NCBI GenBank assembly: GCA_016839705.1
Contig: JAEOTR010000003.1
Span: 1-61,308, forward strand
Direction of reading: 5' to 3'
Length of the DNA: 61,308 nucleotides
Source of the DNA: Promethearchaeota archaeon
GTDB lineage: Archaea; Asgardarchaeota; Lokiarchaeia; Sigyniarchaeales; SOKP01
Shown: in pieces, positions 4,459-25,431 of the stretch
Layout: each line of letters begins with the position of its first letter
Numbering within the stretch: position 1 is the first letter of the stretch
Notes under the pieces: generated by a model
What the model saw: only the letters and a program-made list of their open reading frames with translations
Told to the model about the DNA's origin: nothing
The model's database searches: none
Made by a program: the position numbers and the translations under genes

Positions 4459-4587
4459 TTAGAAGAAATAGAGCTTAATGTGGGAGAGGTAGATCCCCAA
4501 AAAGAAACCGAAAAGTTTGATTAAAATAAATTATTTAAATAAAATGTAGAAATAAATAAAGAAAATTAGGAAATTAGGGGATATAAT

Positions 4588-5868
4588 ATGGAAGAATTAG
4601 CAGATCAAGGAACATTTAAGAGTTATTTATTTTTCTGGTCGGGACAATTAATGTCTCTGATGGGATCATTAATAGTTCAATTTGCTATTACGTGGTGGAT
4701 TACAGTGGTAACAGGTAGTGCACTCTACCTTTCTTTAGGCACCTTTTTATATTTTTTACCTATGGTTTTTCTTACGCCCATTACAGGAGTTTTAGCAGAC
4801 AGATGGGATCGTAAAAAGCTTATTGCATTCGTAGATTCTTTTCAATCATTAGTAACCGTTTGGATTATCGTCTTGTTTTATTTAGGAATAGCAGATCCTT
4901 TAGGAGTAATATTGATAAATAGTTTAAGAGGTGTATTTCAAGCATTTCATATGCCTGCGGTAAGTGCTGTTGTTCCAACAATGGTACCAAAAGAAAAATT
5001 AAGTAGGATTAATGGGGTTGGTTATCTTTTTACAAGTTTAATACAACTTATCGGGCCGGTTATTGGTGCAGTGCTTATAGCATTTATTTCACTGCAATTC
5101 ATTCTTTGGTTAGATGTTATCACTTTTTCTATTGCGATTATACCTTTATTGTTGATTAAAATACCAAATGTAAAAAACATAACTGAAATAAGTGAACAAA
5201 CGAGAACAACATCATTTAAGAAAGATTTCAAGGAGGGAATTACAACAATAAGAATAATCCCAGGATTGGTGATACTTTTATTATTAGATATGATCCTAAA
5301 TTTCTTAGTTGCTCCTGTTAATGTATTACTACCTCTTTTTATAAAAGATGTTCATTTAGGAACAGCTTTAGATTTGGCATTTCTTAGCATGTTTCTAAAT
5401 GGGGGTATGATCTTAGGAGCATTAATAACTAGTTTAAAGAAGGATTGGAAACACAAGAATTCTATATATTTTATAGGTTTGATGATTCTCATGGGATTAC
5501 TCTCGATTTTAGGAATTGCCCCAACAGGAGTCTTTGTAGTATTGTGGATAGGAATAGGAATGGTAGGTCTTGTTCTCCCAATTATAAATACAATTTATAT
5601 GACCATCATACAAACTACTGTTCCTCCCGATAAAATGGGAAGAGTGTCATCCGTCATTCAATCATTATCCTCGGCCATTTTTCCAATAGGAATAATTATC
5701 GCAGGACCTCTTGCTGAAGCAATTGGAATTCGAAGTGTATTTATTTATGGATCACTTATCGGAGTATTAGCTGTATTCATGATATGGCGCTTTACAAAAA
5801 TTCGCCATGTTAATTATGATAATGTTGATCTTATCCTCGAAAAAATCAATAACATAAATGGAAAATGA
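4588..5868 (+). CDS. MFS transporter (MefA/DHA3-like), copy 2
   Basis: FWSGQLMSLMGS, GVLADRWDRK, MGRVSS; clear paralog of copy 1. Confidence 0.9.
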   Translation: MEELADQGTFKSYLFFWSGQLMSLMGSLIVQFAITWWITVVTGSALYLSLGTFLYFLPMVFLTPITGVLADRWDRKKLIAFVDSFQSLVTVWIIVLFYLGIADPLGVILINSLRGVFQAFHMPAVSAVVPTMVPKEKLSRINGVGYLFTSLIQLIGPVIGAVLIAFISLQFILWLDVITFSIAIIPLLLIKIPNVKNITEISEQTRTTSFKKDFKEGITTIRIIPGLVILLLLDMILNFLVAPVNVLLPLFIKDVHLGTALDLAFLSMFLNGGMILGALITSLKKDWKHKNSIYFIGLMILMGLLSILGIAPTGVFVVLWIGIGMVGLVLPIINTIYMTIIQTTVPPDKMGRVSSVIQSLSSAIFPIGIIIAGPLAEAIGIRSVFIYGSLIGVLAVFMIWRFTKIRHVNYDNVDLILEKINNINGK

Positions 5869-5895: not shown

Positions 5896-5963
5896 ATGGA
5901 AGAAGTAGCAAATAAAAAAACTTGTTTTTCTGGTCAGGTTAGTTGTTTTCATTATTTGGATCA
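5896..5963 (+). pseudogene. 5' relic of a fifth MFS copy
   Basis: AGGTGA SD, then MEEVANKKT, a frameshifting deletion, then LFFWSG*LFSLFGS; matches the N-termini of the neighbours, with TAG at the conserved Gln. Confidence 0.75.
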
Positions 5964-6113
5964 AAGAGTAGAAAATAACAAAATTTATTTTATTTTTTTA
6001 ATGGTCTTTGTTAATAATTTGATTTTAGGTTTCTCAAATTTCTAAAGGATACAAACCAAAATTAAAAATTCAATTTGTTTGCAAATATTTTTTACTTAAT
6101 GAGTTTGATGTAA

Positions 6114-7379
6114 TTGGAAGAAAGAACTAAAAAAAAAACTTTTCGAAGTTATATGTATTTTTGGTTTGGGCAATTGTTCTCTTTATTAGGCTCATTAGTA
6201 GTCTTTTTTGTTATATTTGTGTGGATTGCTGACGAAACAAGAAGCCCATTAATGTTATCCTTAGCGAGTTTCATTAATCTTGTTCCTCTACTTATCATTA
6301 CACCATTTGCTGGAGTTATCTCAGACAGGCTCAATCGGAAGATTATAATCTTAGTTGTGGATTCATTGCAAGCATATCTGACAATTATTCTAACAATATT
6401 TTTCATCTTGGATTCCGCAGAAATTTGGATCGTGTTTATATTCCTAGGATTTCGAAGCATATGTCAAGCCTTTCATAATCCAACTGTTATGGCTATATTG
6501 CCATCTATGGTTCCACAAGATAAGTTAGGGAGAGTCAATGGTATCAGATACTTATTTTTAGGTATTATACAATTTATAGGTCCTGCAGTAGGGGCAACCT
6601 TATTATTTTTTGTTGAAATAAAATACATTCTCTGGATAGATGTAATTACTTTTATGATTGCACTGGTTCCTCTCATAACTTTAAAATTACCTCAACTTCA
6701 AATTAGCGATGATCTTGGTCAACAAAATTCATTTGTGAAAGATTTTAGAGAAGGAATTAGGGTAATGAAAAATGTTCCTGGACTTCTAATAATTATGCTG
6801 ATTGCGATGTTATTATCTATGTTGACACAACCTTTAATGGTTCTATCCACATTTTATATAAAGTATATACATGGTGGTAATAATTTTACATTAGCAATCA
6901 TTCAAATGGTATGGCAGGGAGGAATGATTTTAGGAGCATTAATTCCTTTTTTTAAAAAACAATGGAAAAATAAGATGAGAATTTTATTTACCGGAATGAT
7001 TGTAATAAATGTTGGTTATATAATGCATGCAGTTGCTCCAATTGGATTCTTTCCTCTGATAGGTACGGGAGCATTTATAATGGGATTCATTATGCCTGTT
7101 GTGAATATAATTGTGATAACAGTAGTTCAAACTACTGTTCCTCATGAAAAAATGGGGAGAGTTTCTTCTATTTTAAATACATTAATGATGATTGGTTCAC
7201 CTTTAGGAGCTATTTTAGCAGGGACATTAAGTGAGGTAATAGGTGTATCATTTCTATATCTACTATGCGCGATTATAGGAATCATTATTACTATTATCCC
7301 CTATTATTTCACGGATATCAGACATGTTAATTATGATAGAGAAATTGGGGCTTCTAATTCTTTAGTAAGCAAAATCTAA
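6114..7379 (+). CDS. MFS transporter (MefA/DHA3-like), copy 3
   Basis: TTG start; FWFGQLFSLLGS, GVISDRLNRK, MGRVSS. Confidence 0.9.
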   Translation: MEERTKKKTFRSYMYFWFGQLFSLLGSLVVFFVIFVWIADETRSPLMLSLASFINLVPLLIITPFAGVISDRLNRKIIILVVDSLQAYLTIILTIFFILDSAEIWIVFIFLGFRSICQAFHNPTVMAILPSMVPQDKLGRVNGIRYLFLGIIQFIGPAVGATLLFFVEIKYILWIDVITFMIALVPLITLKLPQLQISDDLGQQNSFVKDFREGIRVMKNVPGLLIIMLIAMLLSMLTQPLMVLSTFYIKYIHGGNNFTLAIIQMVWQGGMILGALIPFFKKQWKNKMRILFTGMIVINVGYIMHAVAPIGFFPLIGTGAFIMGFIMPVVNIIVITVVQTTVPHEKMGRVSSILNTLMMIGSPLGAILAGTLSEVIGVSFLYLLCAIIGIIITIIPYYFTDIRHVNYDREIGASNSLVSKI

Positions 7380-10283: not shown

Positions 10284-12683
10284 TTATAAACTATGTTCTA
10301 ACCTATCAATAATGTCATTTTGAATTGGAGTGCCAAGATCAATAAAAGTAGCATTATATCCTCCAACTTTTACAATTAAATCTTGATACTCATCAGGATG
10401 TTGTTGTGCATCTTTAAGAGTTTTAGTCGATACAACAGTAGGTTGTAATTGCATCCCCCCTGAATCGAAATATCCCTTTACAATATAGGTGAATTTTTCA
10501 ATATTTTCTTCAGTTTTAATATTTTGAGGATTGATCCTCACATTAACCGCAACACCATTTATCGCTAGGTCATAGTTCAATTTTGCTATAGAATTTAATG
10601 CGGCAGTAAGACCATTCTTCTCCATTTTATTCACAGGAGAAAGACTATTTGATAATGGTTGATTAGCTTTCCTCCCATCTGCAGATGCTTTTGTAAACAA
10701 TCCCTCTATAACATGTATTCCCATAGAATAAGCTCCTGGATTATATCTACCTTCTCTCAAGCATTTATGCTTAGCTACTTCAGAGCAGAACAAGTCCCAC
10801 AACTCTTTCGCACTTAGATCTATTTCCTCTTTATCATTTCCCCATTTATTATATTTGTTTAATAGTTTTTGTCGTAGTTCTTCTTGCTCACTGAAATTTG
10901 AATTAAGAACTTCAATTAGTTTCGGGAGTGAGATAATTTTTTCTTCATAAACAGATTTCTTGACATTATACATTGAATCGACTAAAGTTGCAAATCCGTA
11001 AGCTGTGATTGAGGAGAAGTTATATTGTGCCCCTCCCGCAGTATAATCCATGCCTTTTTCCATACAACCATCAATGATGGCCGACACAAATGGTTGTGGA
11101 AAATGTTTAATGGTCTCTTCATCTCCAATCCTAGCAATTTTAACAGTTTTTTCAATGTTATATTGTAATTGATGGATAAAAGCCGTATAAAATTCCTCAT
11201 ATGTAGAGAAATTTCTAGGATCACCTGTTTCTAAGCCACCTATCTGTTGTGTTAAATTACAATACCCATTGTTTAATGTGAGTTCAAGAACACCTGGAAG
11301 ATTTATAAACATTCTACCCGTAGCAGCAAAAGTATTTCCTTGACTTGTAGGTTCTACACATCCAATTATTGCATAATTACGAGCGTCTTCGGTAGTATAT
11401 CCTCCCTTTATCATTGCAGGAATAATAATCTCGTCATTATAGAAAGCTATTCCAGAAGTTGATCGAAATACTTTTATCGCCTTTTTTAAAAATCTGGGGG
11501 GAGTTTTGTTATGAATTCTGATTGAAAGATCAGTTGTGAGTGCCTTAAGATTCTTATAGGCTTCTAGGAATAAATAGGAAATTTCATTTGTGGTATCGTT
11601 TCCTTTCTGATCTACCCCAGAAATTGTGATTGTTTGGGTATTTTGTCCAAGAGCATTTGCTATTGTGGTATAATCTGTTGGTAATAGTGTTACATTCCAA
11701 GTGAGTTTCAAATTCAATTCTTCAATCAGTTCAAGTGCGAATTCTTTTGTAATGTTATCTTTTTTGATATCCTCTTTATAATATGGCCATAAGATTTGAT
11801 CTAACCTACCTAAAGCAACAACACTTCTCTGATAAATTATATTAATGATGTTCTGGGTGAAATGTATAAGTTGAATTGCTTCATAAAATGAGTTTGGGCT
11901 AGAATGGGTAAATCTCTCCATCATCCTTCCTATTATTTCGAGCTCCTTCTTCTTTTTTTCATTTTTCTCATCCGATGCTTTTTTATAAACAAGTTTAGAG
12001 TATCTCCTCGAAAATTCTATAGCAGCAGTATAAAGTATCTTTATAGCTTCATAGAAATTAAACTTCTCTTCATAGTTGAGATCGTCTATTTTTATTTTTG
12101 ACTGGTATGATTCTGCTTCTTTAAGAATCCCCTTATATCCTAATTTTAGAAGTTTTTCATATCCTACACATATATGACCTTCATTAGTTCCACTTACGAT
12201 AGCAATATTAGGAACAGCTAAAGCAATTCTATTATCTCCTGTAATTAATTTCTCATCTAAGATTCTTTGAGGAATTATATTACTATAAAGAGCTTTTCCT
12301 TTCCAGAAAGGAATAATTTCCAGAAGCTCATTTATATCATTTTCTTCCATAAAGAAGGGTTGCAGTTTTCTCCTAGTGTATTTTTTAATACCTGAGCGTT
12401 TGTTAAAACTTCCATCATACGAATGTAGGTCAAGATTAATTTTTTCACCTAAATTTTTACTAGTTTCATTTCCGACAAGTAGTTCATCTTCTCTAATAAA
12501 AATGGTCATGTGATTTAAAGTATGAGAAACAGCTTTAGCGTTCTTTATGATTTCAGGATCATCCGGAAATTTTTTATAGACTTCAGTGAAAGATTTCGCT
12601 CTTTCAATACATAATTCATATTTACTCGACAAAAGATTCTTTTTCAATCTCCTAGTTCTTCCAAGGCTTTTATCTAAAATCAA
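10284..12683 (-). CDS. Glycyl radical enzyme (PFL-like, GCVEP type), substrate unknown
   Basis: ELLVG, GRLDQILWPYY, GCVEP Cys loop, ASADGR, and C-terminal DLIVKVGGYNATF Gly loop. Confidence 0.9.
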   Translation of the reverse strand: MILDKSLGRTRRLKKNLLSSKYELCIERAKSFTEVYKKFPDDPEIIKNAKAVSHTLNHMTIFIREDELLVGNETSKNLGEKINLDLHSYDGSFNKRSGIKKYTRRKLQPFFMEENDINELLEIIPFWKGKALYSNIIPQRILDEKLITGDNRIALAVPNIAIVSGTNEGHICVGYEKLLKLGYKGILKEAESYQSKIKIDDLNYEEKFNFYEAIKILYTAAIEFSRRYSKLVYKKASDEKNEKKKKELEIIGRMMERFTHSSPNSFYEAIQLIHFTQNIINIIYQRSVVALGRLDQILWPYYKEDIKKDNITKEFALELIEELNLKLTWNVTLLPTDYTTIANALGQNTQTITISGVDQKGNDTTNEISYLFLEAYKNLKALTTDLSIRIHNKTPPRFLKKAIKVFRSTSGIAFYNDEIIIPAMIKGGYTTEDARNYAIIGCVEPTSQGNTFAATGRMFINLPGVLELTLNNGYCNLTQQIGGLETGDPRNFSTYEEFYTAFIHQLQYNIEKTVKIARIGDEETIKHFPQPFVSAIIDGCMEKGMDYTAGGAQYNFSSITAYGFATLVDSMYNVKKSVYEEKIISLPKLIEVLNSNFSEQEELRQKLLNKYNKWGNDKEEIDLSAKELWDLFCSEVAKHKCLREGRYNPGAYSMGIHVIEGLFTKASADGRKANQPLSNSLSPVNKMEKNGLTAALNSIAKLNYDLAINGVAVNVRINPQNIKTEENIEKFTYIVKGYFDSGGMQLQPTVVSTKTLKDAQQHPDEYQDLIVKVGGYNATFIDLGTPIQNDIIDRLEHSL

Positions 12684-12725: not shown

Positions 12726-14537
12726 TTATTTAATTCTAAAAAAGACTCGCATATAAAAGATTACAAAGGGTAACATGACTAGCAGGTAAAGAGAAGAACT
12801 GTTTTTATAAAATTTACCTAGAAACAGAACCAGACTCCTAATGTAGTATAGAATAACTCCAGTTAATAAAATAAATAACACGTGAGAAGCAATACCTCCT
12901 AAAATAGGGAACGGAGGAAGTGGAACAAATGCTAAGAAGATTATAATTGTAATAGGTCGTAATACCATTATTATCATAGCATGACGTCCTTTCATCTCTC
13001 TTAAGTATAAATAGTCCATAATCCCCGAACCTAATCCAAGAACTAAATAGGGTACAGAAGAGATGTTGAATATAGGTATTGTAAAACTCATAGTTAATCC
13101 AGTAACTAAATTATACAACAATAAGAAATAGAGTGTAGGGATAACTACAATTGAAAGTGAATATAAAAAGGGAAATAAGTCATTATTTATCCAATTTTTC
13201 CATTCTTGCCTCCAATTAGAGTGTAATTCACTGGGGATGAATAACATAATAATTATTGATATAATCGGGAATCATATGAAGTAACCATAGAGAATCGATT
13301 GATTAAGTAAGGAAAATATAATTCCTGTGATTATTAATGCCCCCATATAACCTGACGTTCGAAAAATTATCATTTTTTTATATCTTTCTTTACCCTCTCG
13401 AGAATTATCTAAATCTTTTTTCATAGGGAGCTTATCCCAATGTGGTAAAATTCTAAATTTTATTACTAATGAACTTAATCCAATGAATAAAATTATTGCC
13501 GATGCGATAACTAAATCCTCTGAAACAGTATTATATGGGTAATTGAAATTAAATAAGGTAATAGAATTGATTTCGCTGTCTAATTTTGTAATATTAATTG
13601 TCTGATTATGGTAATAATGCTCAAACCATGTGATTGCCATTTTCAACGAAGTTTCATCTTTTTCATTTCCTTCATGACCCCGTCTTGGTCTTACTTTCAT
13701 GACAATATCAGTCCGGTTTGAAGGATTTATCTTATCAAAAAAACTCTCTGTATCAGCGGGAAATATTATATTATCTGCTGAACCTTGTAATAGCAATAGA
13801 TTTTGAGTATTATTCTCGTTAGAGAGGTCATATCCATCTTGAATTTCATCAATGTTTATAACGACTATGTTTGATCCTATTAGATATCGAAGGGGAATCC
13901 TATCTGTTAAACTCCCAATATCCGCTAAAGGGTGATAGAGAACTACAACATGAACTCTGTCTTCTAAAGCTTGTAGAATGGCACCAATACCCCCACCATA
14001 TGAAAACCCTAAAACACCAATATGAGAAGTATTTGCATATTGATAATTAGCTTCGATATAATCAATAACTTCAATCATATCATAAGGTTCAACTGCAAGA
14101 AATCCACTGGGACTACCAGATTCTCCATGACCTCTCTGTTCTACCGAAATTACAGCATAACCCAATTTGACATATTGATAAATGATTCCCGTTTTATGTT
14201 CTTTTCTTCCATTGATACCATGAAGAAGCAAGATAGTGGGAATAGAATTTATATCGTTCTCTTTTAAATTTATATCAACATAAATTAGTCCTTCAATAAT
14301 AATTCCATCTCTCATCTGAATTGAGATCGATTCTACATCAATATTTTCATTAGCAAAATAAGTACGTTGTTGCGTTCTTAAAATTACAGCAAAAGAAACA
14401 GAAATTATGGTTAAAATTACACTCACGGATAAGAATAGAATTCCTATATACCTAATTAATAGTTTTTTTTCAATTCTATTCTTTATTTTTTCTAGGCTCT
14501 TTCCAAGTTTCTCTCTTCTGTTCACTATAATATACAC
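12726..14537 (-). pseudogene. Membrane-anchored alpha/beta hydrolase with C-terminal multi-TM region, split by one in-frame TGA (13272-13274)
   Basis: LLLHG, EQRGHGES, GFSYGG nucleophile elbow, GSADNII, GHEG; ORFs 13272..14537 and 12726..13247 share a frame and read YFI*FPIISIIIMLFIP. Confidence 0.65.
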
Positions 14538-14947: not shown

Positions 14948-15463
14948 TTGGAAGGTAAAAAAGCCTCAGATTCAAAAGTAGAAATAGCTCAGGTTATGAT
15001 GCCTGAACACTCTAATGCTGCGGGAAATGTACATGGGGGATATATTTTGAAATTGGTAGATCAAGCAGGTGCTATAGTAGCAGCAAGGCATACTCATAGT
15101 AATATAGTGACCGCAAGTTTGGATCGAATGGATTTTATTTCACCTGTTTATGTTGGAAATTTAGTATTCGCTAAAGCTTCAGTTAACTTCGTATCGAATA
15201 CATCAATGGAAATCGGTGTAAGGGTAGAAGCAGAATGCTTAAGAACTGGAACTCATACCCATGTTGGATCTGCCTACTTAACTTTTGTTGCTTTAGATAA
15301 AAACGATAAACCAACTATGGTTCCTAAGCTCATTTTAGAAACTGAAGATGATAAGCGTAGGTTTGAAGAGGCTAAAAACAGAAGAGAATTACGATTACAA
15401 CAAGTTAAAAAACATAAGCATATCCAACAACCTAGTATCGTTCGACCTGAGAAACTAAATTAA
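14948..15463 (+). CDS. Acyl-CoA thioesterase (hotdog fold, YciA-like)
   Basis: NAAGNVHGGYILKLVD, VTASLD, TSMEIGVRVEAE, AYLTFVALD. Confidence 0.9.
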   Translation: MEGKKASDSKVEIAQVMMPEHSNAAGNVHGGYILKLVDQAGAIVAARHTHSNIVTASLDRMDFISPVYVGNLVFAKASVNFVSNTSMEIGVRVEAECLRTGTHTHVGSAYLTFVALDKNDKPTMVPKLILETEDDKRRFEEAKNRRELRLQQVKKHKHIQQPSIVRPEKLN

Positions 15464-15628: not shown

Positions 15629-17149
15629 ATGTTATTTCAAGTTTATGGCACCCCAGGTTTTGGAATTACAATCTTCGACCTTATACACTATTCATACATA
15701 ATCTTCATCATACTGATGATGATAAATTCAATTAAACAAAAAATTAAACATACAATTAAGATCACATGGGGATTATACATTCTGATAAACTTTTTTTTAC
15801 CACTCATTTTTGGGATTGGATCCTTCCCATTTTCTCTTCTTTGGCAAGGTGAAATCTATGGATATGAAAGGATTTATAGTCCACAAACAGGATGGGTTAG
15901 TATATTCGCTATATATTTTTATGGTATATTCGAACCTTTAGCAGCTATATTAGTCACAATCCTTTCCTCAACGATTGGCAAAAAGAAAAGAAGAAGGGTA
16001 AAATCTCTTAGAGCACCATCGCTTATAAAGACTTTTCCATTAGATAGAGAGTTAATTTTCATAAGTTATGCAACAGTGGATTCAGATTTTTTCCAGATTC
16101 CGAAACTTACGAAGATTCTAACTAGCTACCCAGAAATTAACGAAATATTATATTGGGAATCTGATATGCATGATGATATTTACCAATACATGGATGAGAA
16201 TTTGAAACAATGTAAAGTTGTTCTTGTTTTTTGCTCTAAAAATTCACTCTACTCAGAAGCAGTTAAAATGGAATGGCGTTCTGCCTTGAAAATGGATAAA
16301 AAAATCATCCCAATATTTGTTGAACCTGATGATTTACCTGCATTACTCTCGACCAAGTTAGGGATCCAATATAATGAAGACGATCCATATTCATCGATAG
16401 AAGATATATATCAGATGATTCTAAGAAAATTAGAAATGAATTCTTTTAGGGAGTTTACGAGGTTTATTATACCGAAGTGGATTACCGAAAAAGATTTCGA
16501 AGAACAAAATCCCGAAACAACAACACAATCAATGGTTTTTGATAGCGATGAATCAATAAAAGATTTAGGGAAAATAATTGCCCTAACTCTCCAAGAAAAT
16601 AATTTTTTCGTTCCTGGCTTGAAAGATTTGGGAGAAAAAATAAGAAAGAAAAAGGACTCGGTCCCAGAATCTGTTGTTCAAGATTTTAACCAATTTAATT
16701 GTTTTGCTGAATTGAAAGATGAACCAGAAGACATTGCATTATCAGTTAGAATCCAAGAAATATCAGAAAGCATATCAAAAGTGTTTATAAATGCCAGAGG
16801 GAAACGAACTTGGGTATTGGATGAGATCTTAAAAGATCTCCAACTAAAATTGATAGATTTAAAAAGTACAAATGAACTTTTACGAAATAATTTAGAAAAG
16901 ATTACTTCCTTATTAACCCAAATGAAAGATGTTGAAAGATTCCTTAGGAAGAATCTTGGGTCGGATATTAAACAAGTAGAATCGTTACTCTCTCAATATA
17001 ATGATGAGATAATTGAAAAAGAGGAACTTATTATAAAAGGAACACAATTAATAGGAAAGAATTTTATTACTGTATTCCTCAAAAATATCCCATTAATATT
17101 GAAAGAAAGCAAAAAGACACCTGTTGAAAAACCCCCTCTTCAATTTTAA
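15629..17149 (+). CDS. Three-TM membrane protein with cytoplasmic TIR domain and conserved C-terminal domain
   Basis: Three hydrophobic helices, then KKKRRR; IFISYA...YWESDM...VLVFCSKNSLYSEAVKMEW..AL...KKIIPIF is a TIR pattern. Confidence 0.85.
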   Translation: MLFQVYGTPGFGITIFDLIHYSYIIFIILMMINSIKQKIKHTIKITWGLYILINFFLPLIFGIGSFPFSLLWQGEIYGYERIYSPQTGWVSIFAIYFYGIFEPLAAILVTILSSTIGKKKRRRVKSLRAPSLIKTFPLDRELIFISYATVDSDFFQIPKLTKILTSYPEINEILYWESDMHDDIYQYMDENLKQCKVVLVFCSKNSLYSEAVKMEWRSALKMDKKIIPIFVEPDDLPALLSTKLGIQYNEDDPYSSIEDIYQMILRKLEMNSFREFTRFIIPKWITEKDFEEQNPETTTQSMVFDSDESIKDLGKIIALTLQENNFFVPGLKDLGEKIRKKKDSVPESVVQDFNQFNCFAELKDEPEDIALSVRIQEISESISKVFINARGKRTWVLDEILKDLQLKLIDLKSTNELLRNNLEKITSLLTQMKDVERFLRKNLGSDIKQVESLLSQYNDEIIEKEELIIKGTQLIGKNFITVFLKNIPLILKESKKTPVEKPPLQF

Positions 17150-17190
17150 TATCTTTTTGTTCTGAAGTTTTTTATATAAAATATAATGGA

Positions 17191-17499
17191 TTAATCTCGA
17201 ATTGCTAGCACAACTAAATCTTCTAAGCTTCGAATACCTCTAGGTTCATTTTCATTTAATGAAATATAATCATTTTCTCCTAATTCTTTTTCTCCTGAAC
17301 CAGTTGTAAATACTCCCCTTCCTTTTAAGACAAAGAACACAACAACGTGAGATCCTTGATGTGGGAGGATCGCTAAACCTTTTTTAAGTGAAATTCGCAT
17401 TATTTTAAAACCACCTGATTTATAAATCAAATCTTTAGCAGGAGTATCCATCAAAAATTTCTGGTCATCAAAGATATTCTTTATTCCTATAACTATCAC
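17191..17499 (-). CDS. Cupin domain protein
   Basis: LKKGLAILPHQ...FFVLKGRG...L.ENDYISLNENEPRGI; start uncertain because the GTG lies inside the SD. Confidence 0.75.
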   Translation of the reverse strand: MIVIGIKNIFDDQKFLMDTPAKDLIYKSGGFKIMRISLKKGLAILPHQGSHVVVFFVLKGRGVFTTGSGEKELGENDYISLNENEPRGIRSLEDLVVLAIRD

Positions 17500-17633
17500 C
17501 TTTCTTTTGATTAAATTATAATGAAATTTTAATAAAATAACCTAACCTTATATTTAATTAATCTTATTCCCAGAAAATGTAACTATTTATAAAAATAAAA
17601 ATAAGATAATTTATAATACTGAGGGAACTTGAA

Positions 17634-18959
17634 GTGGAAGAAGTTTATAAAAAACCAAAGCTAAAGCGTAGAGTCTCTTTATTTGCTCTAACGGTTTATG
17701 GTGTAGGTAATGTATTAGGGGCAGGGATATATTCCTTAATTGGTGAAGTTGTAGGGATAACGGGGAACCTCTCATGGCTAGCTTTCATTATAGCATCTAT
17801 AACTGGAGCGTTAACGGGATTATCATACGCCGAACTTTCAGCAATGTACCCTAAAAGCGCTGCAGAATTTGTTTATACTGAAGAAGCATTTAAAAAAAGG
17901 ATTCTATCATTTATTTTAGGGTGGATAATCATCTTTTCAGGAATACTCTCAGCAGCCACTGTCGCATTAGCTTTTGGAGGATATTTATCTGGATTAATTG
18001 GAATACCCTCTATATATTTAAACATTATTTTCGCAATCATACTCGTAGTAATTCTTAGTGTAATAAATTTAATCGGTATTAAATCATCAACGCGAACTAA
18101 TATAATTTTTACGTTAATTGAGGCATCAGGTTTAATTATTATAATTATTATTGGGATACCCTCTTTTGGAACAGTTGATTATTTTGCGCTTCCAACAGCC
18201 TCAACTTTTACAGCCATTTTTTCCTCGATTGCTCTCATATTTTTTGCTTATATAGGATTCGAAGATATTGCCAATATTGCTGAAGAAGTAAAAGAGCCTC
18301 ATAAAAACCTCCCTAAAGCAATAATTTATTCAATCATTATTACTACTGTAGTCTATTGCCTTACTGCAATTTCAGTAGTGAGTATATTAGACTATAATGT
18401 AATAGCTGCTTCTGAAGCACCACTTAATGAGGTTGCTGCAGAAGTATTAGGTCCGATTGGTGGTATAATCATGTCTTCAATTGCACTATTTGCTACAGCT
18501 AATACAGTCCTCATTATGTTGATTGTGACGTCCCGTATGATGTATGGGATGGCAAGAGATAAAGCACTACCAGATGGTCTTAGTAGAATATCCTCAAAAT
18601 TTAGAACCCCAATGATTGCTGTAATTGTTACTACTTGTTTTACAGTAGTCCCAATCTTATTTGGGGATATTTCATTAGTCGCTCATGCAACCGTTTTTGG
18701 TGTGCTCATCAATTTTATTCTTGTTAACCTTAGTTTGATAGTTTTGCGTAAAACAAAACCAGATATTGAAAGACCATTCAAACTGAAACCAAATATTAAA
18801 TGGGTTCCAATAATCGCTTTATTAGGTTCTATTATATGTTTTACTTTGTTGTTTACTTTTGATTGGGTAGTTCTTCTTATTCAAGCAATTATAATTCTCT
18901 GTGGTATTAGCGTCTTTTATGGGATGAAATCAAAAATAGAGATAAAAACTAGAAAATAA
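17634..18959 (+). CDS. APC-family amino acid permease
   Basis: GNVLGAGIY, SYAELSAMYP, FFAYIGFE..AEEVKEP, SRMMYGMARD. Confidence 0.9.
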   Translation: MEEVYKKPKLKRRVSLFALTVYGVGNVLGAGIYSLIGEVVGITGNLSWLAFIIASITGALTGLSYAELSAMYPKSAAEFVYTEEAFKKRILSFILGWIIIFSGILSAATVALAFGGYLSGLIGIPSIYLNIIFAIILVVILSVINLIGIKSSTRTNIIFTLIEASGLIIIIIIGIPSFGTVDYFALPTASTFTAIFSSIALIFFAYIGFEDIANIAEEVKEPHKNLPKAIIYSIIITTVVYCLTAISVVSILDYNVIAASEAPLNEVAAEVLGPIGGIIMSSIALFATANTVLIMLIVTSRMMYGMARDKALPDGLSRISSKFRTPMIAVIVTTCFTVVPILFGDISLVAHATVFGVLINFILVNLSLIVLRKTKPDIERPFKLKPNIKWVPIIALLGSIICFTLLFTFDWVVLLIQAIIILCGISVFYGMKSKIEIKTRK

Positions 18960-19101
18960 ATTAGTTTTCGATTTCTTACTTTTTTGTATGTAGAATTCCT
19001 TATAGTATATTAAATTGTAAATCTTTTTAAACAATTATATCAAAGTTAATACTTAACAATCCAAAATATTACAATATTGTGAAAATTAACACAAATCTCT
19101 A

Positions 19102-22100
19102 ATGGTTATGATGAATGTCAATATTATCACACCTCAATTTAACGAAAGAAGTAGGAAAAATCTAACTCAGAAATCATACATCAAAAAAATTATCTCTTTT
19201 TCAATTATTCTATTGCTATGTTTTTCAATTAACATTCCAAATTTCTTAAGAGAATCTGGCAGTAGGCAGATAAGGGAAGATCATTCCATTGAAGAAATTT
19301 ATCTTAAATCAAGCAATCAGGGGGATCAAATGTTTAAATTCATATATGGTATTACAAATGGACCTCTTAATCTCGATCCTCATGATGCTTGGGACAAAGT
19401 TTCTTATGATGTAATTGAACAAGTATGTGAAGGATTGTTTTCTGATGACCTCAGTACTCCTGAAGCAGATATCATACCAAACTTAGCAAATGAAACCGGT
19501 ACTTGGATGATAAATGCTACAGATACATGGTATACTGTTTCGCTTAGATCTAACGTAACATTCCATGATGGAACTAAATTTAATGCAACTGCTGTCCAAT
19601 TTAGTTTTGATCGACTAGCTTATTTATTAAATTTCACTGGGACATTACCAGCAAGTGTTGAAACAAGCAGACTTACCGTTGTATATACTTGGGGTGACGG
19701 CACTCCTATCATCAACCATACTGAGATTATTGATGAATTTACAATTAAATTTGTTTTAACAAGACCGTATGCTGCCCTTCCAAGTTTATTATGCTTTTGG
19801 GCTTCATATATCTTATCACCTACCTCAACCAATGCGACTGGTTATATTGATACATTTACAGGAGATCTTGTTGGGACGGGGCCATTTGTATATGACGAAT
19901 ATATATCCGGAGAGGAAGTAAGACTTCATGCCTACGATGATTATTGGAAAGGAAAATCTCAGATAGAACTGCTTACATTTAAAATTGTCACAGATCCGGT
20001 TCAAGCATTAACTTCAGGTGAAGTTGATATGATAAATAATCTATATATTAATATGGTAAGCACCTTAGAAGCAGATCCTAACATTAACGTTGTAGATGTT
20101 GGAAATGGTAGTGTTATATATTTTATGCAAATGAATAATAAACTCCTAAATAGAACTTGGAGAGAAGCTATTTCATACACTGTCAATTACTCATATATTC
20201 TTGATGTCTTATGGCAAGGAAGATATAATAGATTACGTAGCCCACTTCCTGATGGTGTGCTATACGCTAATAATACTAACAAAGTAGCAACGTTTAACAT
20301 ATCATATGCTCGGAGTGTTATGCAATCTATGGGTTATGGAATAGGGTGGGATACGGATTACCCTGGGGTTGATGAGACACTATGGACTTCTTCCACATTT
20401 GCTATAGATGAATTTGGTGTCTCTATAGATTTAAATTTGTTCCCAAACAGTCAATTTAATTCTCTTCTAAATTCTTTACTGATGTCAGATTTATCAAAAA
20501 TAGGTATCGATCTCAGCGAAACAGAAAGATCTTTGAATGATCTCCAAATAGCTGGAGGAAGTAATCCAGATGAATTAGGTCTTTGGATCTTGGGTTGGGG
20601 TGCTGATAGCTATGATCCATCTCACATCATCGATCCTTTCTTTTCTAATGAATCTATATATTCCACTAATCATGCTCAAGTTAATGATTCATACCTTCAA
20701 AATCTCATTGATAATGGGTTAACTGAAACAAACCCAGCTGCTAGAAAAGCAATCTATGATGAAATTCAAAGATATCTTGTTGAGGATAGTATGCCTTGGG
20801 TGTTCCTAGGTATAAATCGTGTATTCGATGCTTATTATGATTATGCTCTTGGATATCAATCAAATTCATTTGGTCGGGTTAATTTATATACAGTATCACA
20901 GAATAGTACCCTATATCCTGGAAGAATATATTTAAATGGAGATCAAGAATGGGATTATTTAAAAACGTTCGGGAAATGTACAGGTTCTGGCACTGCTATT
21001 GATCCTTACATAATTAGGGATTTAGTTATAAACTGTCAAAATCGATCTCAGAGTGGGATTTTAATTGAGAATTCAGATGTGTTTGTTGAAATAAGAAATT
21101 GTACAATATATAATTCAACAGGAGCAGGAATTGAATTTAATAATGTGAGTAATTCCAAAATAATTGGGAATAATTGTTCAAATAATAGTTTTGGAATATT
21201 GTTGGATCTTAATTCAATTAATAATGAAATTTCTACTAATCTTATAGATACTAACAGCCAATATGGAATCATTTTGAATAATGCTCAAAATAACCTTGTT
21301 TTTAATAATACAGTAATTTGGAATAATGTCAATGCATACGATAATGGAACTAATAATGACTGGGATAATGGAGCTATGGGTAATTACTGGAGTGATTATG
21401 ATGGAGTTGATGATGACAATGATGGTATAGGTGATACTCCTTATACCATTCCGGGATCTTCAGGGAGACAAGATAATTTTCCACTATATGACAGGTATTT
21501 TGTTCCCGGCATTCAGGTCTATGTAGCCCCAGATCAAATAATTAAAGTAGGGATTTTAGGTGATCCGAGTCATATTTCCTGTGAACATGCTTGGAAAGGC
21601 GCAGTTCTTGCAGCAAAAGAAATTAATGAAGCTGGGGGGATTTTAATAAATGGAAGTGTATTTTATATAGGTCTTATTTCACAGAATACGTTTGAAGCGG
21701 AAGAAAATCTCGATACAACTAAAGGGATTAATGCTGCGACAAATTTAATTTCAACTTATGATCCTGATTTTATCATAGGAGGACTGAAATATCAATCTGT
21801 ATCAGCGTATCTTGAACCAATTATGGATGCTCAAATACCCTTTCTCCCAACAATTGTTTCTATTGACAATTTCACCCAAAATGTCTTGGATAATTATGAT
21901 CGGTATAAATATTTCTTCAGTCATACACATAACAATTCTGAAATAGCTAGAGAACTCATAACTTTTCAGGTTTATCTAACCTCACTATTATCTTTCACTA
22001 TAGGTCGGTCGGTAGATAAAATAGCAATTCTTCATGATGGTCAAGGTTTATGGCCCGCATTTTTTGATTTTGTAAAATCAAATTTTCTCCCTTTGTATGG

Positions 22101-24594
22101 ATTAGAAGTTGTAAAAGAAATTATATTCAATCAAAGCACTACAAAAGAAAATTTTAAAGATTACTGGTATGAAATTGACAATGCAGGAGCACAGGTTACT
22201 TTTGTTGGATCTTGGTTTTTGGATAATCTACCATTGATAAGCGAAGCATATGGGGAAGTCAAACCAAGGTGTTTATTATTCAGTTCTAATGGATATAACG
22301 TATTAGATACATATTGGAGTGATACTAATGAAGGATGCAAATATGAAGTTGGCCTTCAGGCTGTTTTAAATATTTCACGAACATCTCGATCAATGCCTTT
22401 TTGGAATAATTTCGTAAATGAATATAGTCATGAGCCATTTTTTGCTGCAGCAAGTGCATATGACAGTATTTATTTACTGGAAAACGCTACTTTAGATTCG
22501 CAATCTCTGGATGGTTCGAAGATTGTTGGAAGTTTAGAAAAAATAAATGTTTCCAATCCATTCCCAGGAATATCGGGAAAATTTGCTTATACCTCTTCTC
22601 ATGCTGTATTTCATGGGGTGGGTTATGGTTCCGAAGGTTATGCTTCCTGTATTATGTACCAATGGCAAGCAAACGGAAATAAATTTGTCATCCCAAATGC
22701 TAATTTAATATATCCTGATTCCTTAGCAACGGGTGGTTTACAAATTCCAGACTGGGGTATAAATATTCACTATACTATAAACTCTCCTATTGAAAATACT
22801 ATTTTTACGGAACTCCCTCCGGCTTTTAATGTTGAGATTCTTGATCCAATAGATGAATCTTGGTATATATTAAACTCTGGATCAGAAAAGCACTTTTTCA
22901 CTGCAAATCAATCAATAGATCCCACTGATTGGACCAACTTGCCGGAAGGAATCGTTAATTTAACATTTTATGCTATTGATTCTCAAGGAAAAATTTATCG
23001 TAGATATGTGACTTTCATAAAAGATGTTTCTCCTCCACATGTTACTATAGAACCGATGGAAACAACAACTTTCGGAAGTGAACCTCCTACGATAACTCTT
23101 GATATACAAGATGTTTCGGGTATTAAAGAAAGTTATTATAGCTTGGATGATGGCATAACTAAAATTCCATTTACTGGTAATGTAGTTACAATTAACCAAA
23201 CGATCTGGGAGGCATTGGGAGAAGGAATAGTAACAATTGCTTTTTATATAATAGATGTTGTTGATAAAGAAACCATTGTATATGTAGATGTATTTAAAGA
23301 TTTACCAGGAGCGCCCCCAGGTGACAATATTTTCTTTATTATTATTATTGGAGCCATAGCTCTCTGTTTAGGAATCGTAAGTACTATTACTTATTCACAA
23401 CATAGAAGAAAAAAGCGAAGAAAGACAGATTGGGCTAAACTGAAAAAGAAAAAAGGATTGATGACACCAGAATCCGCTGAAGGGAAGAATCTAGTTTTTA
23501 TAAGCTATGCGACTAAAGATTCTGAGTTATTTCAAATCCCATTGATAACAGATATTTTAATCCAATATCCAGAGATAGATGATATACTCTATTGGGAATC
23601 CGATATGCATGACGATATTTATGAATATATGGATGATAACTTAAAACTCTGCTCTAATTTCCTATTATTTTGTACGGAGAACTCTCTCTATTCTGAAGCT
23701 GTTAAAATGGAATGGCGTGCTGCCTTGAAACTAGATAAGAAAGTAATTCCAATTTTCATCAATCCAAATGATATACCTCCATTGTTAACAACAAAATTAG
23801 GTGTGCAATTTAATGAGGATGAAGTGTACGATTCAATAGAGGGTATATATCAGATGATATTGACAAAATTAGAAGTGCCTTCGTCTAGAGAGTTTTGCAA
23901 TTATCTAATTCCAAAATCGGTTTCTGAAGAATATTTTGACGAGAAAACTGCTCCAATGATAAAAAAAGATGCAATAATTGAAAGTGATATCCCCGCTAAT
24001 GACCTACAGATGAAACTTATATCATTTTTGGAAAAAAATAACTTTGAATTTCTCAAGGAATCAAATAAAGACGAAAAAGCTAAAGAATTTGAAGGATTTG
24101 CTGAAAGAACAAATGAAACACAACTAATATCTCTAAGATTTTTTGCTGAAGATAAATTTGCAAAACAAGAAATCGGATTATCTGCTACAATTCAAAAAGT
24201 TGAAGAATATAAGAGCAAAATATACCTTAGGATTATGGGGAATAAGGAATGGATGATCGGTGAAGTTTTAAAGGATCTCAATGGCAAATTCTATCCGCTA
24301 AAAACAGTTACCGAATTATTGAGAGAATATTCAGAAAAAATTGAAAATTTTATCGATCAAGTGGATAATCTTGAGGAATTTTTAAGTATAAATCTAGGTA
24401 TAGAATTTAGGGAAATTGAAGATATTCTGCATCAATTATCCAGAAATGAAATAGAAAAAGGCGAATTTATAAAAAGAGGGCTTCAATTGCTTGGAAAACA
24501 ATTTATACTGTTGTTCATTGAACACTTACTAAAAACTCCATATGATAAGAAAAAGGCAGAAGAACAAGGCGAAGGAATTCTTAGTCCCCTTTAA
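19102..24594 (+). CDS. Receptor-like protein: family-5 solute-binding domain + NosD-like beta-helix + type-1 periplasmic-binding (LivJ-like) domain + Ig-like repeats + TM + TIR + C-terminal domain
   Basis: NLDPH, IIPNLA, LRSNVTFHDGTKFNA, GTGPF (SBP5); GNYWSDY.G.D...DGIGDTPY (NosD-like); IKVGILG...GAVLAAKEINEAGGI, SAYDSIY (type-1 PBP); TM IFFIIIIGAIALCLGIV then RRKKRRK; TIR VFISYA...SEAVKMEW. Confidence 0.85.
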   Translation: MVMMNVNIITPQFNERSRKNLTQKSYIKKIISFSIILLLCFSINIPNFLRESGSRQIREDHSIEEIYLKSSNQGDQMFKFIYGITNGPLNLDPHDAWDKVSYDVIEQVCEGLFSDDLSTPEADIIPNLANETGTWMINATDTWYTVSLRSNVTFHDGTKFNATAVQFSFDRLAYLLNFTGTLPASVETSRLTVVYTWGDGTPIINHTEIIDEFTIKFVLTRPYAALPSLLCFWASYILSPTSTNATGYIDTFTGDLVGTGPFVYDEYISGEEVRLHAYDDYWKGKSQIELLTFKIVTDPVQALTSGEVDMINNLYINMVSTLEADPNINVVDVGNGSVIYFMQMNNKLLNRTWREAISYTVNYSYILDVLWQGRYNRLRSPLPDGVLYANNTNKVATFNISYARSVMQSMGYGIGWDTDYPGVDETLWTSSTFAIDEFGVSIDLNLFPNSQFNSLLNSLLMSDLSKIGIDLSETERSLNDLQIAGGSNPDELGLWILGWGADSYDPSHIIDPFFSNESIYSTNHAQVNDSYLQNLIDNGLTETNPAARKAIYDEIQRYLVEDSMPWVFLGINRVFDAYYDYALGYQSNSFGRVNLYTVSQNSTLYPGRIYLNGDQEWDYLKTFGKCTGSGTAIDPYIIRDLVINCQNRSQSGILIENSDVFVEIRNCTIYNSTGAGIEFNNVSNSKIIGNNCSNNSFGILLDLNSINNEISTNLIDTNSQYGIILNNAQNNLVFNNTVIWNNVNAYDNGTNNDWDNGAMGNYWSDYDGVDDDNDGIGDTPYTIPGSSGRQDNFPLYDRYFVPGIQVYVAPDQIIKVGILGDPSHISCEHAWKGAVLAAKEINEAGGILINGSVFYIGLISQNTFEAEENLDTTKGINAATNLISTYDPDFIIGGLKYQSVSAYLEPIMDAQIPFLPTIVSIDNFTQNVLDNYDRYKYFFSHTHNNSEIARELITFQVYLTSLLSFTIGRSVDKIAILHDGQGLWPAFFDFVKSNFLPLYGLEVVKEIIFNQSTTKENFKDYWYEIDNAGAQVTFVGSWFLDNLPLISEAYGEVKPRCLLFSSNGYNVLDTYWSDTNEGCKYEVGLQAVLNISRTSRSMPFWNNFVNEYSHEPFFAAASAYDSIYLLENATLDSQSLDGSKIVGSLEKINVSNPFPGISGKFAYTSSHAVFHGVGYGSEGYASCIMYQWQANGNKFVIPNANLIYPDSLATGGLQIPDWGINIHYTINSPIENTIFTELPPAFNVEILDPIDESWYILNSGSEKHFFTANQSIDPTDWTNLPEGIVNLTFYAIDSQGKIYRRYVTFIKDVSPPHVTIEPMETTTFGSEPPTITLDIQDVSGIKESYYSLDDGITKIPFTGNVVTINQTIWEALGEGIVTIAFYIIDVVDKETIVYVDVFKDLPGAPPGDNIFFIIIIGAIALCLGIVSTITYSQHRRKKRRKTDWAKLKKKKGLMTPESAEGKNLVFISYATKDSELFQIPLITDILIQYPEIDDILYWESDMHDDIYEYMDDNLKLCSNFLLFCTENSLYSEAVKMEWRAALKLDKKVIPIFINPNDIPPLLTTKLGVQFNEDEVYDSIEGIYQMILTKLEVPSSREFCNYLIPKSVSEEYFDEKTAPMIKKDAIIESDIPANDLQMKLISFLEKNNFEFLKESNKDEKAKEFEGFAERTNETQLISLRFFAEDKFAKQEIGLSATIQKVEEYKSKIYLRIMGNKEWMIGEVLKDLNGKFYPLKTVTELLREYSEKIENFIDQVDNLEEFLSINLGIEFREIEDILHQLSRNEIEKGEFIKRGLQLLGKQFILLFIEHLLKTPYDKKKAEEQGEGILSPL

Positions 24595-24684: not shown

Positions 24685-25431
24685 TTATAAGAACAGTTCA
24701 TCAAGATTACAATAACCTACAACTTCATCTCTTAAGAAAAATTTAAAAGGAAACTCCACAGCTTTATACGGTTTTAAAATATTTAGTAAAACTTCATGTT
24801 CAGGCTTCGAAAAAATCTCTTTAAATTCCTCTCCTACACCTTCTAAAAACTGAAATTGTTGAAGAACAAAATTTCCTGAAAATTTTAAATCCCTAAGAAA
24901 TTTTATAATAATCTCAATATCTTTTGAAGATAGAAGACTTTCAACATAAGTAGTACGTATCTCAAACTCTATTTCTTTTTGGATTTTTAGAAATTCAATA
25001 GTATCCCTTATCTTATTTGTATCTACTTTCACACCAGTAATCTTTTCTAGTTTTTTCAGCTCAAGAGGTCCCTTCAAATCTAATGCTACTCTATTAATAT
25101 AAGGAGAAATTGTTTTTATAACCGTGGGATTTGATCCGTTAGTATCAATGCTTAAAAATTTATCGAGGTTTTTAATTTCTCTACATAACTCTGGCAAATC
25201 TTTTTGTAATGTTGGTTCTCCTCCTGTAATACTCACTCCGCTTACTAGTGAGTTAGTACTTATTTGATTAATCAATTCACTGATAGAATATTCTCTCCCA
25301 ACATTGAGTTGTAAAAGATATTTATTATGACAAAAATCACACTTAAAGTTACATCCTACAGTAAATATTACCATAGCGGATTTATGTGGAATGTCCTTTG
25401 TTGAAATGTCAAGGATTCCTCCAATTTTCAT
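24685..25431 (-). CDS. Radical SAM glycyl-radical activating enzyme (NrdG-like)
   Basis: IFTVGCNFKCDFCHN, ITGGEPTLQ, IDTNGSNP, ALDLK, EIRTT. Confidence 0.85.
   Translation of the reverse strand: MKIGGILDISTKDIPHKSAMVIFTVGCNFKCDFCHNKYLLQLNVGREYSISELINQISTNSLVSGVSITGGEPTLQKDLPELCREIKNLDKFLSIDTNGSNPTVIKTISPYINRVALDLKGPLELKKLEKITGVKVDTNKIRDTIEFLKIQKEIEFEIRTTYVESLLSSKDIEIIIKFLRDLKFSGNFVLQQFQFLEGVGEEFKEIFSKPEHEVLLNILKPYKAVEFPFKFFLRDEVVGYCNLDELFL

Follow-up and report, generated by a model that had tools for sequence, protein, structure and literature searches.

The window analysed here is a 61,308-nucleotide stretch of contig JAEOTR010000003.1 of a Promethearchaeota archaeon (Asgard, class Lokiarchaeia), which corresponds to contig C18 of host genome G000, a 3.36-Mb metagenome-assembled genome (MAG) that is 93% complete. 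It encodes two membrane proteins with TIR domains, a small protein of 506 residues (P0001) and a receptor-like protein of 1830 residues (P0002). TIR domains are common to animal, plant and bacterial immunity, and animals are known to have outside-in receptors that join such a domain to a ligand-binding ectodomain. An earlier interpretation made from the letters of the window, referred to here as the sequence-only reading, had proposed that the two proteins form a receptor/co-receptor module that senses amino acids or peptides. Are these neighbours in fact a pair? The four open reading frames (ORFs) at 15629-24594 match the positions given in the sequence-only reading exactly, including the cupin and permease that it had placed between the two TIR genes:

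15629..17149, plus strand: small membrane TIR protein P0001, 506 residues (ORF; Pfam TIR_2, 56 bits; orthologues; AlphaFold2 tail model)
17191..17499, minus strand: small cupin, 102 residues (Cupin_2 match just below the Pfam cut-off)
17634..18959, plus strand: APC-family amino-acid permease, 441 residues (AA_permease_2, E 3e-53)
19102..24594, plus strand: type I receptor-like protein P0002, 1830 residues (ORF, Pfam, hydropathy, orthologues)

P0001 lacks an ectodomain. By hydropathy it begins with hydrophobic helices at residues 13-31, 45-63 and 94-112, which are followed by the polybasic stretch GKKKRRR, and its parts are placed as follows:

15665..15964, plus strand: membrane anchor of three hydrophobic helices, residues 13-112 (hydropathy, alignment)
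16055..16381, plus strand: TIR domain (PF13676; glutamate E215 at 16271-16273; fold Z 13-14.7)
16451..16840, plus strand: platform-like alpha/beta domain, residues 275-404 (hidden Markov model (HMM); VIA-align)
16841..17098, plus strand: helical end module, residues 405-490 (HMM, alignment; weakly RST/PAH-like)

The TIR_2 match of P0001 spans residues 143-251 against a cut-off of 28 bits, and the protein also matches ThsB_TIR (E 6.2e-7; 30.2 bits against a cut-off of 21.2); the PADLOC Thoeris models gave no match at E 0.01, P0001 yielding only a weak match to the bSEFIR model. Orthologues of P0001 (P0005-P0008 and the proteins on G142:C23 and G143:C13) are 61-69% identical to it over 96-100% of its length, and metagenomic relatives carry the NCBI label Promethearchaeota. 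The aligned orthologues show poor conservation of the membrane part and good conservation of the juxtamembrane motif and of the tail, so that the N-terminus seems to serve for anchoring and not for sensing. There is a second class of anchor-only proteins, with four transmembrane (TM) helices and ~545 residues.

P0002 has a signal-anchor at residues 30-48 and a single TM helix that directly precedes the polybasic stretch HRRKKRRK, with the following parts:

19471..20655, plus strand: SBP_bac_5 ectodomain part (oligopeptide-type solute-binding), residues 124-518 (Pfam, E 1.6e-55)
21034..21405, plus strand: NosD/right-handed beta-helix ectodomain part, residues 645-768 (Pfam)
21565..22566, plus strand: Peripla_BP_6 ectodomain part (LivJ-type amino-acid-binding, or Venus-flytrap), residues 822-1155 (Pfam, E 1.2e-10)
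23329..23385, plus strand: single TM helix, residues 1410-1428, then the polybasic stretch (hydropathy)
23494..23820, plus strand: TIR domain (Pfam; glutamate E1537 at 23710-23712)
23887..24276, plus strand: platform-like domain, residues 1596-1725 (HMM, E 2.5e-56)
24277..24534, plus strand: helical end module, residues 1726-1811 (HMM, E 2.6e-36)

The N-glycosylation sequons of P0002 are distributed unevenly, with 33 in residues 50-1400 and one in the tail. This bias, together with the TM positions, is the basis for assigning outside and inside, and fits a type I topology in which the ectodomain lies outside, one helix crosses the membrane and the TIR tail lies inside; the cytoplasmic placement of both TIR domains behind polybasic stretches, as proposed in the sequence-only reading, is supported. 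The TIR_2 match covers residues 1465-1573 (45 bits against a cut-off of 28), and in an orthologue of P0002 the Peripla_BP_6 match strengthens to E 7e-21 and is joined by an ANF_receptor match. No LRR or Ig families are among the Pfam matches of the ectodomain. Orthologues with 60-80% identity were found in seven genomes, and the domain matches give P0002 the look of a type I receptor that binds ligands through domains of the peptide and amino-acid types.

Comparison of the two proteins by BLASTP aligned 404 residues at 44% identity (E 3e-101), such that the entire ~400-residue cytoplasmic tail is common to both; the TIR likeness on which the pairing idea was built is real and stronger than had been stated, extending as it does over the whole tail. 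An AlphaFold2 (AF2) model of P0001 residues 125-506, derived from a 38-sequence alignment (pLDDT 82.6, pTM 0.79), divides the tail into the TIR domain, an alpha/beta platform-like domain and a helical end. The TIR fold scores Z 13-14.7 against plant RPS4, TIR-1/SARM1, Cat1, MyD88, MAL, Hydra TRR-2 and ThsB, with 117-130 residues aligned in the matches to RPS4, TIR-1, Cat1, MyD88 and ThsB. The glutamate in the motif AVKMEW (E215 in P0001, E1537 in P0002) is invariant in 38 of 38 tails and in 16 of 16 more distant TIRs of the lineage, and in a profile alignment drawn from weak PDB-chain matches of a broader TIR profile (A4) it lines up with the catalytic glutamate of TIR-1 (HKEL), SPARTA TIR-APAZ (LKEI) and Cat1 (WDEL). 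Because the invariant residue aligns with known catalytic glutamates, the TIR of both proteins looks enzyme-competent, and its predicted chemistry is closest to that of Thoeris, SARM1, SPARTA and Cat1. A PDB-chain sequence search with the TIR and the whole tail gave no match from a single sequence or from profile A1. Homology of the tail to APAZ was considered and rejected: SPARTA TIR-APAZ is the top Foldseek match of the whole tail, but the match has a root-mean-square deviation (rmsd) of ~21 Å and is driven by the TIR.

The TIR cores of the two proteins are 70% identical in protein and ~68% identical in DNA. Is this the trace of a recent event at the locus? The P0001 TIR is 67-72% identical to every other receptor-type TIR and 72-90% identical to those of its own small clade, and the C-terminal domains (CTDs) of P0001 and P0002 are 32% identical. 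Trees of the TIR, of the CTD and of the whole tail give the same split between a small clade (P0001; 487-550 residues) and a receptor clade (P0002; 1015-1831 residues). Between the two TIRs synonymous divergence is saturated (pS 0.85), at a nonsynonymous divergence (pN) of 0.17. The similarity at DNA level that the sequence-only reading had noticed was borne out by measurement, and since synonymous sites are saturated it reflects amino-acid constraint only. A recent local duplication or gene conversion is ruled out by the two deep clades, the equal identity to all receptor-type TIRs and the saturated synonymous sites; the fallback offered in the sequence-only reading, that the arrangement is only a local duplication, is wrong. 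Judged from their sequences, the P0001 and P0002 tails are ancient paralogous clades, and the two proteins belong to a group of Lokiarchaeia membrane proteins with a three-part tail that is restricted to one family.

One hypothesis takes the small gene for the decayed remnant of a receptor whose ectodomain was lost. A tail without an ectodomain would be expected of such a remnant, and broken copies do occur in relatives, one in two pieces on G004:C55 and one frameshifted on metagenome contig L084. However, the P0001 ORF is intact, its orthologues cover nearly all of its length with the three-TM anchor included, the four-TM class is a second conserved group built on an anchor alone, and P0001 belongs to a tail clade of its own. 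We therefore reject this hypothesis as extremely improbable.

A class-wide count was made over 161 genomes of the Lokiarchaeia class, with one MAG per species. Tail-bearing proteins are confined to one family and to two of its genera. The small type was found in five genomes (G000, G120, G142, G143 and G146) and the receptor type in eight (G000, G004, G022, G102, G106, G121 with two copies, G141 and G145). Co-occurrence and synteny in Lokiarchaeia had been named in the sequence-only reading as a check on the pairing, and the two types were found together only in G000, which is one of the 12 genomes having either. This phyletic pattern argues against an obligate pair. No metagenome contig carrying both types was found, most of those contigs being short.

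If the two genes are not an obligate pair, what accounts for their proximity? Island maps were drawn for six loci in six genomes of the two genera, and metagenome contigs were added. Across both genera the island has the order GRE (glycyl radical enzyme) ... 4HBT, slot 1, APC permease, (HdrD-like), slot 2, radical-SAM (rSAM) activase, PfkB. Around the pair in the window, the neighbours identified by Pfam are 4HBT, cupin, permease, rSAM, PfkB and hydrolase, and the outer landmarks are placed as follows:

10284..12683, minus strand: glycyl radical enzyme (Pfam and synteny), the outer left landmark of the locus, kept in both genera
12726-13247, minus strand: 173-residue ORF (hyp173), adjoining GRE in the G000 order
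14948..15463, plus strand: 4HBT thioesterase (Pfam, synteny), the left border of TIR slot 1 in both genera
24685..25431, minus strand: radical-SAM (Fer4_12) activase-like gene, 248 residues (Pfam Radical_SAM and Fer4_12), the right border of TIR slot 2

The gene orders of the mapped islands, with lengths in residues in brackets, are:

G000 (window): GRE - hyp173 - hydrolase - hyp85 - 4HBT - small TIR - cupin - permease - receptor - rSAM - PfkB
G004: GRE - 89-residue remnant of hyp173 - cupin - permease - receptor - activase
G145: GRE ... 4HBT - TIR (~680) - Nudix (575) - permease - hyp249 - HdrD-like - receptor (1404) - rSAM - PfkB
G142: GRE ... small TIR (548) - 4HBT - WD40-TIR (544) - LVIVD-TIR (1071) - Nudix (576) - permease - HdrD - rSAM - PfkB
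G146: small TIR (548) - WD40-TIR - LVIVD-TIR - Nudix (576) - hyp149 - WD40-TIR (~1221) - permease - HdrD - rSAM - PfkB
G120: GRE ... 4HBT - small TIR (544) - Nudix (574) - hyp148 - WD40-TIR (1221) - 376-residue gene (minus strand) ... rSAM

In these maps and on the metagenome contigs, receptor-type genes always lie beside rSAM-PfkB and small-type genes beside 4HBT or a Nudix gene. The rSAM activase adjoins receptor-type genes in nine loci, and adjoins HdrD where slot 2 is empty. Metagenome contigs L080-L083 place receptor-type genes beside rSAM-PfkB, with two tandem copies on L080, while L078 and L084 place small-type genes beside the Nudix gene. The permease is kept regardless of which TIR genes lie next to it, even at loci that lack a receptor-type gene, and the cupin occupies its position only in the genus of the window (G000 and G004). 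Conserved gene order thus indicates that the permease and GRE/activase/PfkB are the island backbone and that TIR content varies in two slots. Because the permease is a backbone gene that is kept where no receptor-type gene exists, it gives no evidence on the ligand, and we reject it as a pointer to what is sensed. The G000 genes look like a tight module because both slots are filled and the separators of the sister genus (Nudix, HdrD-like and other TIR genes) are absent. GRE has a candidate activase 12 kb away in the 248-residue rSAM gene, and the GRE ... rSAM-PfkB synteny is kept in both genera; the TIR island appears, from this gene order, to sit between an enzyme and its candidate activase. 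On metagenome contig L079 (1-1894), the APC permease gene that lies upstream of a 940-residue receptor-type gene is split over three frames, by frameshifts or assembly errors.

The nearest relative, G004, has a receptor 76% identical to P0002 and has lost the small gene. Its hyp173 remnant (L036:9661-9930, minus strand) corresponds to the C-terminal 88 residues of the 173-residue ORF of the window at 83% identity, and this truncated ORF marks the edge of a ~4.4-kb deletion that took the hydrolase, the 85-residue ORF, 4HBT and the small TIR gene. The G004 receptor is nevertheless intact, and the ratio of nonsynonymous to synonymous substitution rates (dN/dS) is 0.22 for the receptor as a whole, 0.10 for its TIR and 0.17 for its CTD, which represents purifying selection. 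The closest full-length P0001 orthologues (G142:C23 and G143:C13) have unrelated genes around them, and within ~10 kb of either no TIR matching the window proteins was found. Elsewhere in G004, contig C55 (L038) carries a second tail-bearing TIR gene in two pieces ~1 kb apart, at 4261-4932 and 5955-6989, both on the minus strand; the pieces encode 344 residues (Ig-like/TM/TIR) and 223 residues (platform and helical end). This split gene adjoins a 575-residue Nudix gene, is syntenic with an intact 1424-residue beta-helix receptor of G022 and is probably a pseudogene.

On balance we consider it likely, if well short of assured, that P0001 and P0002 are anciently diverged paralogues in two independently variable island slots, each working alone. 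We hypothesize that P0002 would act as an outside-in receptor, in which a ligand on the peptide-type or amino-acid-type domains alters clustering and brings the TIRs together, that the gathered TIRs would cleave NAD+ or make an ADP-ribose-type signal, and that the platform and helical end would dock cytoplasmic partners or restrain the TIR. P0001 would carry this output module on an anchor alone and be controlled from the membrane or the cytoplasm, not by an outside ligand; mixed P0001-P0002 assemblies would be possible and not required. Several points weigh against this reading. Most of the counted genomes are incomplete MAGs, as the 93% of G000 illustrates, so that absence in the count means 'not found', and the relatives are not independent samples. 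Five of the six mapped islands pair a small or mid-sized membrane TIR protein next to 4HBT with at least one large TIR protein, and some cooperation among island TIR proteins is plausible. P0001 and P0002 are also the only proteins found in G000 with the full TIR-platform-helical tail, and the very strong conservation of their TIRs could stem from assembly surfaces that they have in common. If the two are independent paralogues, each protein is expected to be active alone, and the locus is a caution that gene adjacency in a single genome does not amount to a functional pair. What is contributed here is an explicit test of the pairing, the two-slot map of the island, the G004 loss and the finding that the tail module occurs mainly on non-TIR proteins.

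An alternative hypothesis is that P0001 serves as a co-receptor or adaptor that co-assembles facultatively with ligand-bound P0002 through TIR-TIR and tail-tail contacts and amplifies or relays its signal, in the manner of IL-1R/IL-1RAcP or of TLRs and their membrane-proximal adaptors. Both proteins have the same tail architecture at the inner face of the membrane and are the only full-tail proteins found in G000, their genes lie 2 kb apart on the same strand, and the islands of relatives usually combine a small membrane TIR protein with large sensor-type TIRs. The lineage also contains a soluble 262-residue protein with a TIR and a helical end (P0126), which indicates that adaptor-like forms occur. 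However, the occurrence of both types in just one of 12 genomes, the purifying selection on a G004 receptor that has lost its neighbour, the unrelated surroundings of the closest P0001 orthologues, the opposite-strand cupin that splits the two into separate transcription units, and the low CTD identity, with no sign of co-evolution or homogenisation, all argue against it. We regard the hypothesis as rather unlikely; of the receptor/co-receptor module of the sequence-only reading, the shared tail and the membrane-proximal position of both proteins stand, and conserved pairing is not supported.

The model for such cooperation is animal. P0002 resembles the IL-1R and TLR families in its layout of ectodomain, single TM helix and cytoplasmic TIR, two TIR-bearing membrane chains that cooperate (IL-1R1/IL-1RAcP) are the source of the pairing idea, and the TIR fold matches MyD88, MAL, IL-1RAcPb and IL-18Rbeta at Z 12.7-13.7. 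In contrast to these families, the ectodomain of P0002 consists of transporter-type solute-binding domains and a beta-helix rather than LRR or Ig domains, the archaeal TIR keeps the catalytic-position glutamate, the tail has two extra domains, P0001 has no ectodomain and the two proteins do not form a conserved pair. Because the fold scores are similar for TIR structures from plants, animals and bacteria, no specific kinship with the animal families is shown. Hydra TRR is proposed to act with a separate LRR membrane protein that lacks a TIR, whereas the neighbour of P0001 has a complete TIR tail of its own. P0001 resembles a membrane-anchored TIR protein without a ligand-binding domain that has been described in Hydra (PMC7075850), and one of the best fold matches is to the TIR of TRR-2 (4w8h, Z 13.5); P0001 differs in the three TM helices of its anchor and in the platform and helical end that follow the TIR. 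A bolder proposal, which we consider distinctly improbable, is that P0001 is a true membrane TIR adaptor that would join ligand-bound receptors through its TIR and helical end, forming an archaeal signalosome whose platform recruits trafficking or effector proteins. Were this proposal true, TLR/IL-1R adaptor signalling would have a counterpart among prokaryotes, in the archaea most closely related to eukaryotes.

A different question is what triggers these proteins, and one hypothesis is that they are surface sentinels of a Thoeris-like anti-virus system whose output kills or arrests the cell, with the solute-binding ectodomain as a virus-contact sensor or decoy. This hypothesis, which concerns the trigger and not the pairing, appears doubtful to us. 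It is consistent with island content that varies among close relatives, with the swapping of ectodomains (solute-binding, beta-helix, WD40 and LVIVD), with the catalytic-type glutamate, and with the ThsB_TIR (E 6e-7) and weak bSEFIR matches of P0001. As in Thoeris, the loci of relatives combine several TIR genes with a single conserved partner that is not a TIR protein, here a putative membrane protein of 574-576 residues that was found next to TIR genes at six loci, each in a different genome, and consists of a ~440-residue N-domain without a family match and a C-terminal Nudix domain that matches the PADLOC candidate model PDC-S07. Its genes are at:

L062:17224-18954, minus strand
L037:9031-10758, minus strand
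L066:1494-3221, minus strand
L064:10981-12705, minus strand
L063:10062-11792, minus strand
L038:7358-9085, plus strand

An ESM Atlas search with the N-domain returned unnamed clusters and one weak 'CorA-like' cluster only. Neither the full-length Nudix protein nor its N-domain, each used as a query, found a match for this protein in the 93%-complete G000. The proteins of the window differ from Thoeris and other NADase-type TIR systems in being membrane-anchored with large ectodomains. The annotated genes near the pair include no ThsA-type effector and none of the SIR2, SLOG or Macro kind, and PADLOC has no model that matches P0002 or the third TIR protein of G000. The island lies in stable chromosomal synteny with metabolic genes (GRE, activase, PfkB and permease) and not in a mobile island, no mobile-element genes having been seen in the annotated parts, and the receptor orthologues, ectodomain included, keep 60-80% identity across two genera at a dN/dS of 0.23 and are not hypervariable.

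The remainder of the tail suggests a third setting. With VIA-align, the best fold matches of the platform are the platform subdomains of coat appendages, both for the whole-tail model and for a CTD-only model (pLDDT 86.5). AP-2 alpha (1w80_A) scores Z 12.2 with the whole tail (112 residues aligned, rmsd 2.8) and 11.2 with the CTD alone, AP-2 beta2 (3h1z) 11.3 and 10.3, AP-4 beta (2mj7) 10.6 and 9.9, and gamma-COP (1r4x) 9.9 with the CTD-only model; 3h1z, 2mj7, 1r4x and 5a1u together span Z 9.1-11.3. KA1 domains (Z ~10) and helix-grip proteins score close behind, identity to appendages is ~10-13%, and no Pfam appendage family matched at E up to 10 in 15 CTDs. The likeness of the modelled platform to appendages is accordingly a resemblance of fold, homology not being shown. 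In the model the TIR runs straight into the platform, standing where adaptins have an immunoglobulin-like sandwich; non-TIR relatives have a conserved segment ahead of the platform, seen as a consensus. The helical end of ~85 residues has recurrent weak Pfam matches to the RST and PAH helical peptide-binding domains (up to 29 bits in a relative). Its identity with Vps28-C is unsupported: hhalign against the Vps28-like protein of G000 itself gave a probability of 0.3%, and PF03997 (VPS28) had no Pfam match in the helical end or the CTDs examined. An ESM Atlas search with the helical end gave no usable match.

How widely is this module distributed? A platform-plus-helical profile searched against 1.84 billion representative proteins found 186 clusters at E <= 1e-3. 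Among the best 147 of these 186, seven have a TIR, 47 have the platform and helical end without a TIR, 75 have the helical end only (many of 60-250 residues) and 18 have the platform only. The N-terminal partners in 52 full-length module matches include TPR (11), WD40 propellers (6) and beta-helix (6), further carriers being LRR and TPR+PCI proteins, and several non-TIR carriers are predicted type I membrane proteins. By these matches the platform and helical end are a lineage-restricted C-terminal module that is carried mostly by non-TIR proteins, and this module is where partners should be sought. Asgard multidomain proteins that combine an adaptin appendage region, a Vps28-C or helical bundle and TPR, IG or PCI domains have been tied to ESCRT (Makarova et al. 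2024, doi 10.1101/2024.02.06.579148), and TIR is unmentioned in the main text of that paper. In the papers searched we found neither membrane TIR receptors of archaea nor a TIR-appendage fusion described. With P0002 an Asgard archaeon has an outside-in receptor layout made of transporter-type binding domains, and the enzymatic-looking TIR of this protein is fused to a fold otherwise known from eukaryotic vesicle-coat adaptors.

In line with the proposal for these Asgard proteins, a further hypothesis is that the tail is a sorting tag, in which the platform and helical module ties membrane proteins to ESCRT-like or coat-like trafficking and marks cargo or cargo adaptors. The described Asgard proteins, the same module at the C-terminus of TPR, TPR+PCI and propeller proteins, and the closeness of the platform fold to AP-2, AP-4 and COPI appendages are in keeping with it. 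It is, however, at odds with the near-zero hhalign probability for Vps28, with recurrent weak matches that point to RST/PAH instead, with the absence of ESCRT genes next to the pair, with KA1 and helix-grip domains that are also close to the platform fold, and with the silence of the Makarova et al. main text on TIR, and we consider it quite unlikely.

Parts of the module also occur separately. In G000 a platform without a TIR is found in a 606-residue propeller protein (L076, contig C85, 4224-6044, minus strand), which lies near a 577-residue HAMP-TPR-VWA protein (L076, 6559-8292, minus strand), and a helical end alone is encoded by a 67-residue ORF (C58:2156-2359, L006; E 1.8e-12 to the helical-end profile). 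Directly after its receptor gene, G004 has a 132-residue open frame with a helical end only (L036:17761-18048; E 1.5e-24). Dozens of such mini-proteins are present in the representative library, and they might dock to the tails or compete with them. The same library contains P0126, whose layout is adaptor-like, and P0120, in which a histone-fold/TAF-like domain is joined to an RST-like helical end (PF12174, 29 bits).

A genome-wide profile search found three TIR genes in G000, as compared with 2-14 in relatives. The third (L005, contig C91, 4659-7175, plus strand) encodes an 838-residue protein that has TM helices at its N-terminus, then a long coiled-coil region of repetitive sequence, and at its C-terminus a TIR belonging to the same clade (44% identity). 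It has no platform or helical end, and its gene is preceded by that of a repetitive surface protein of more than 1472 residues.

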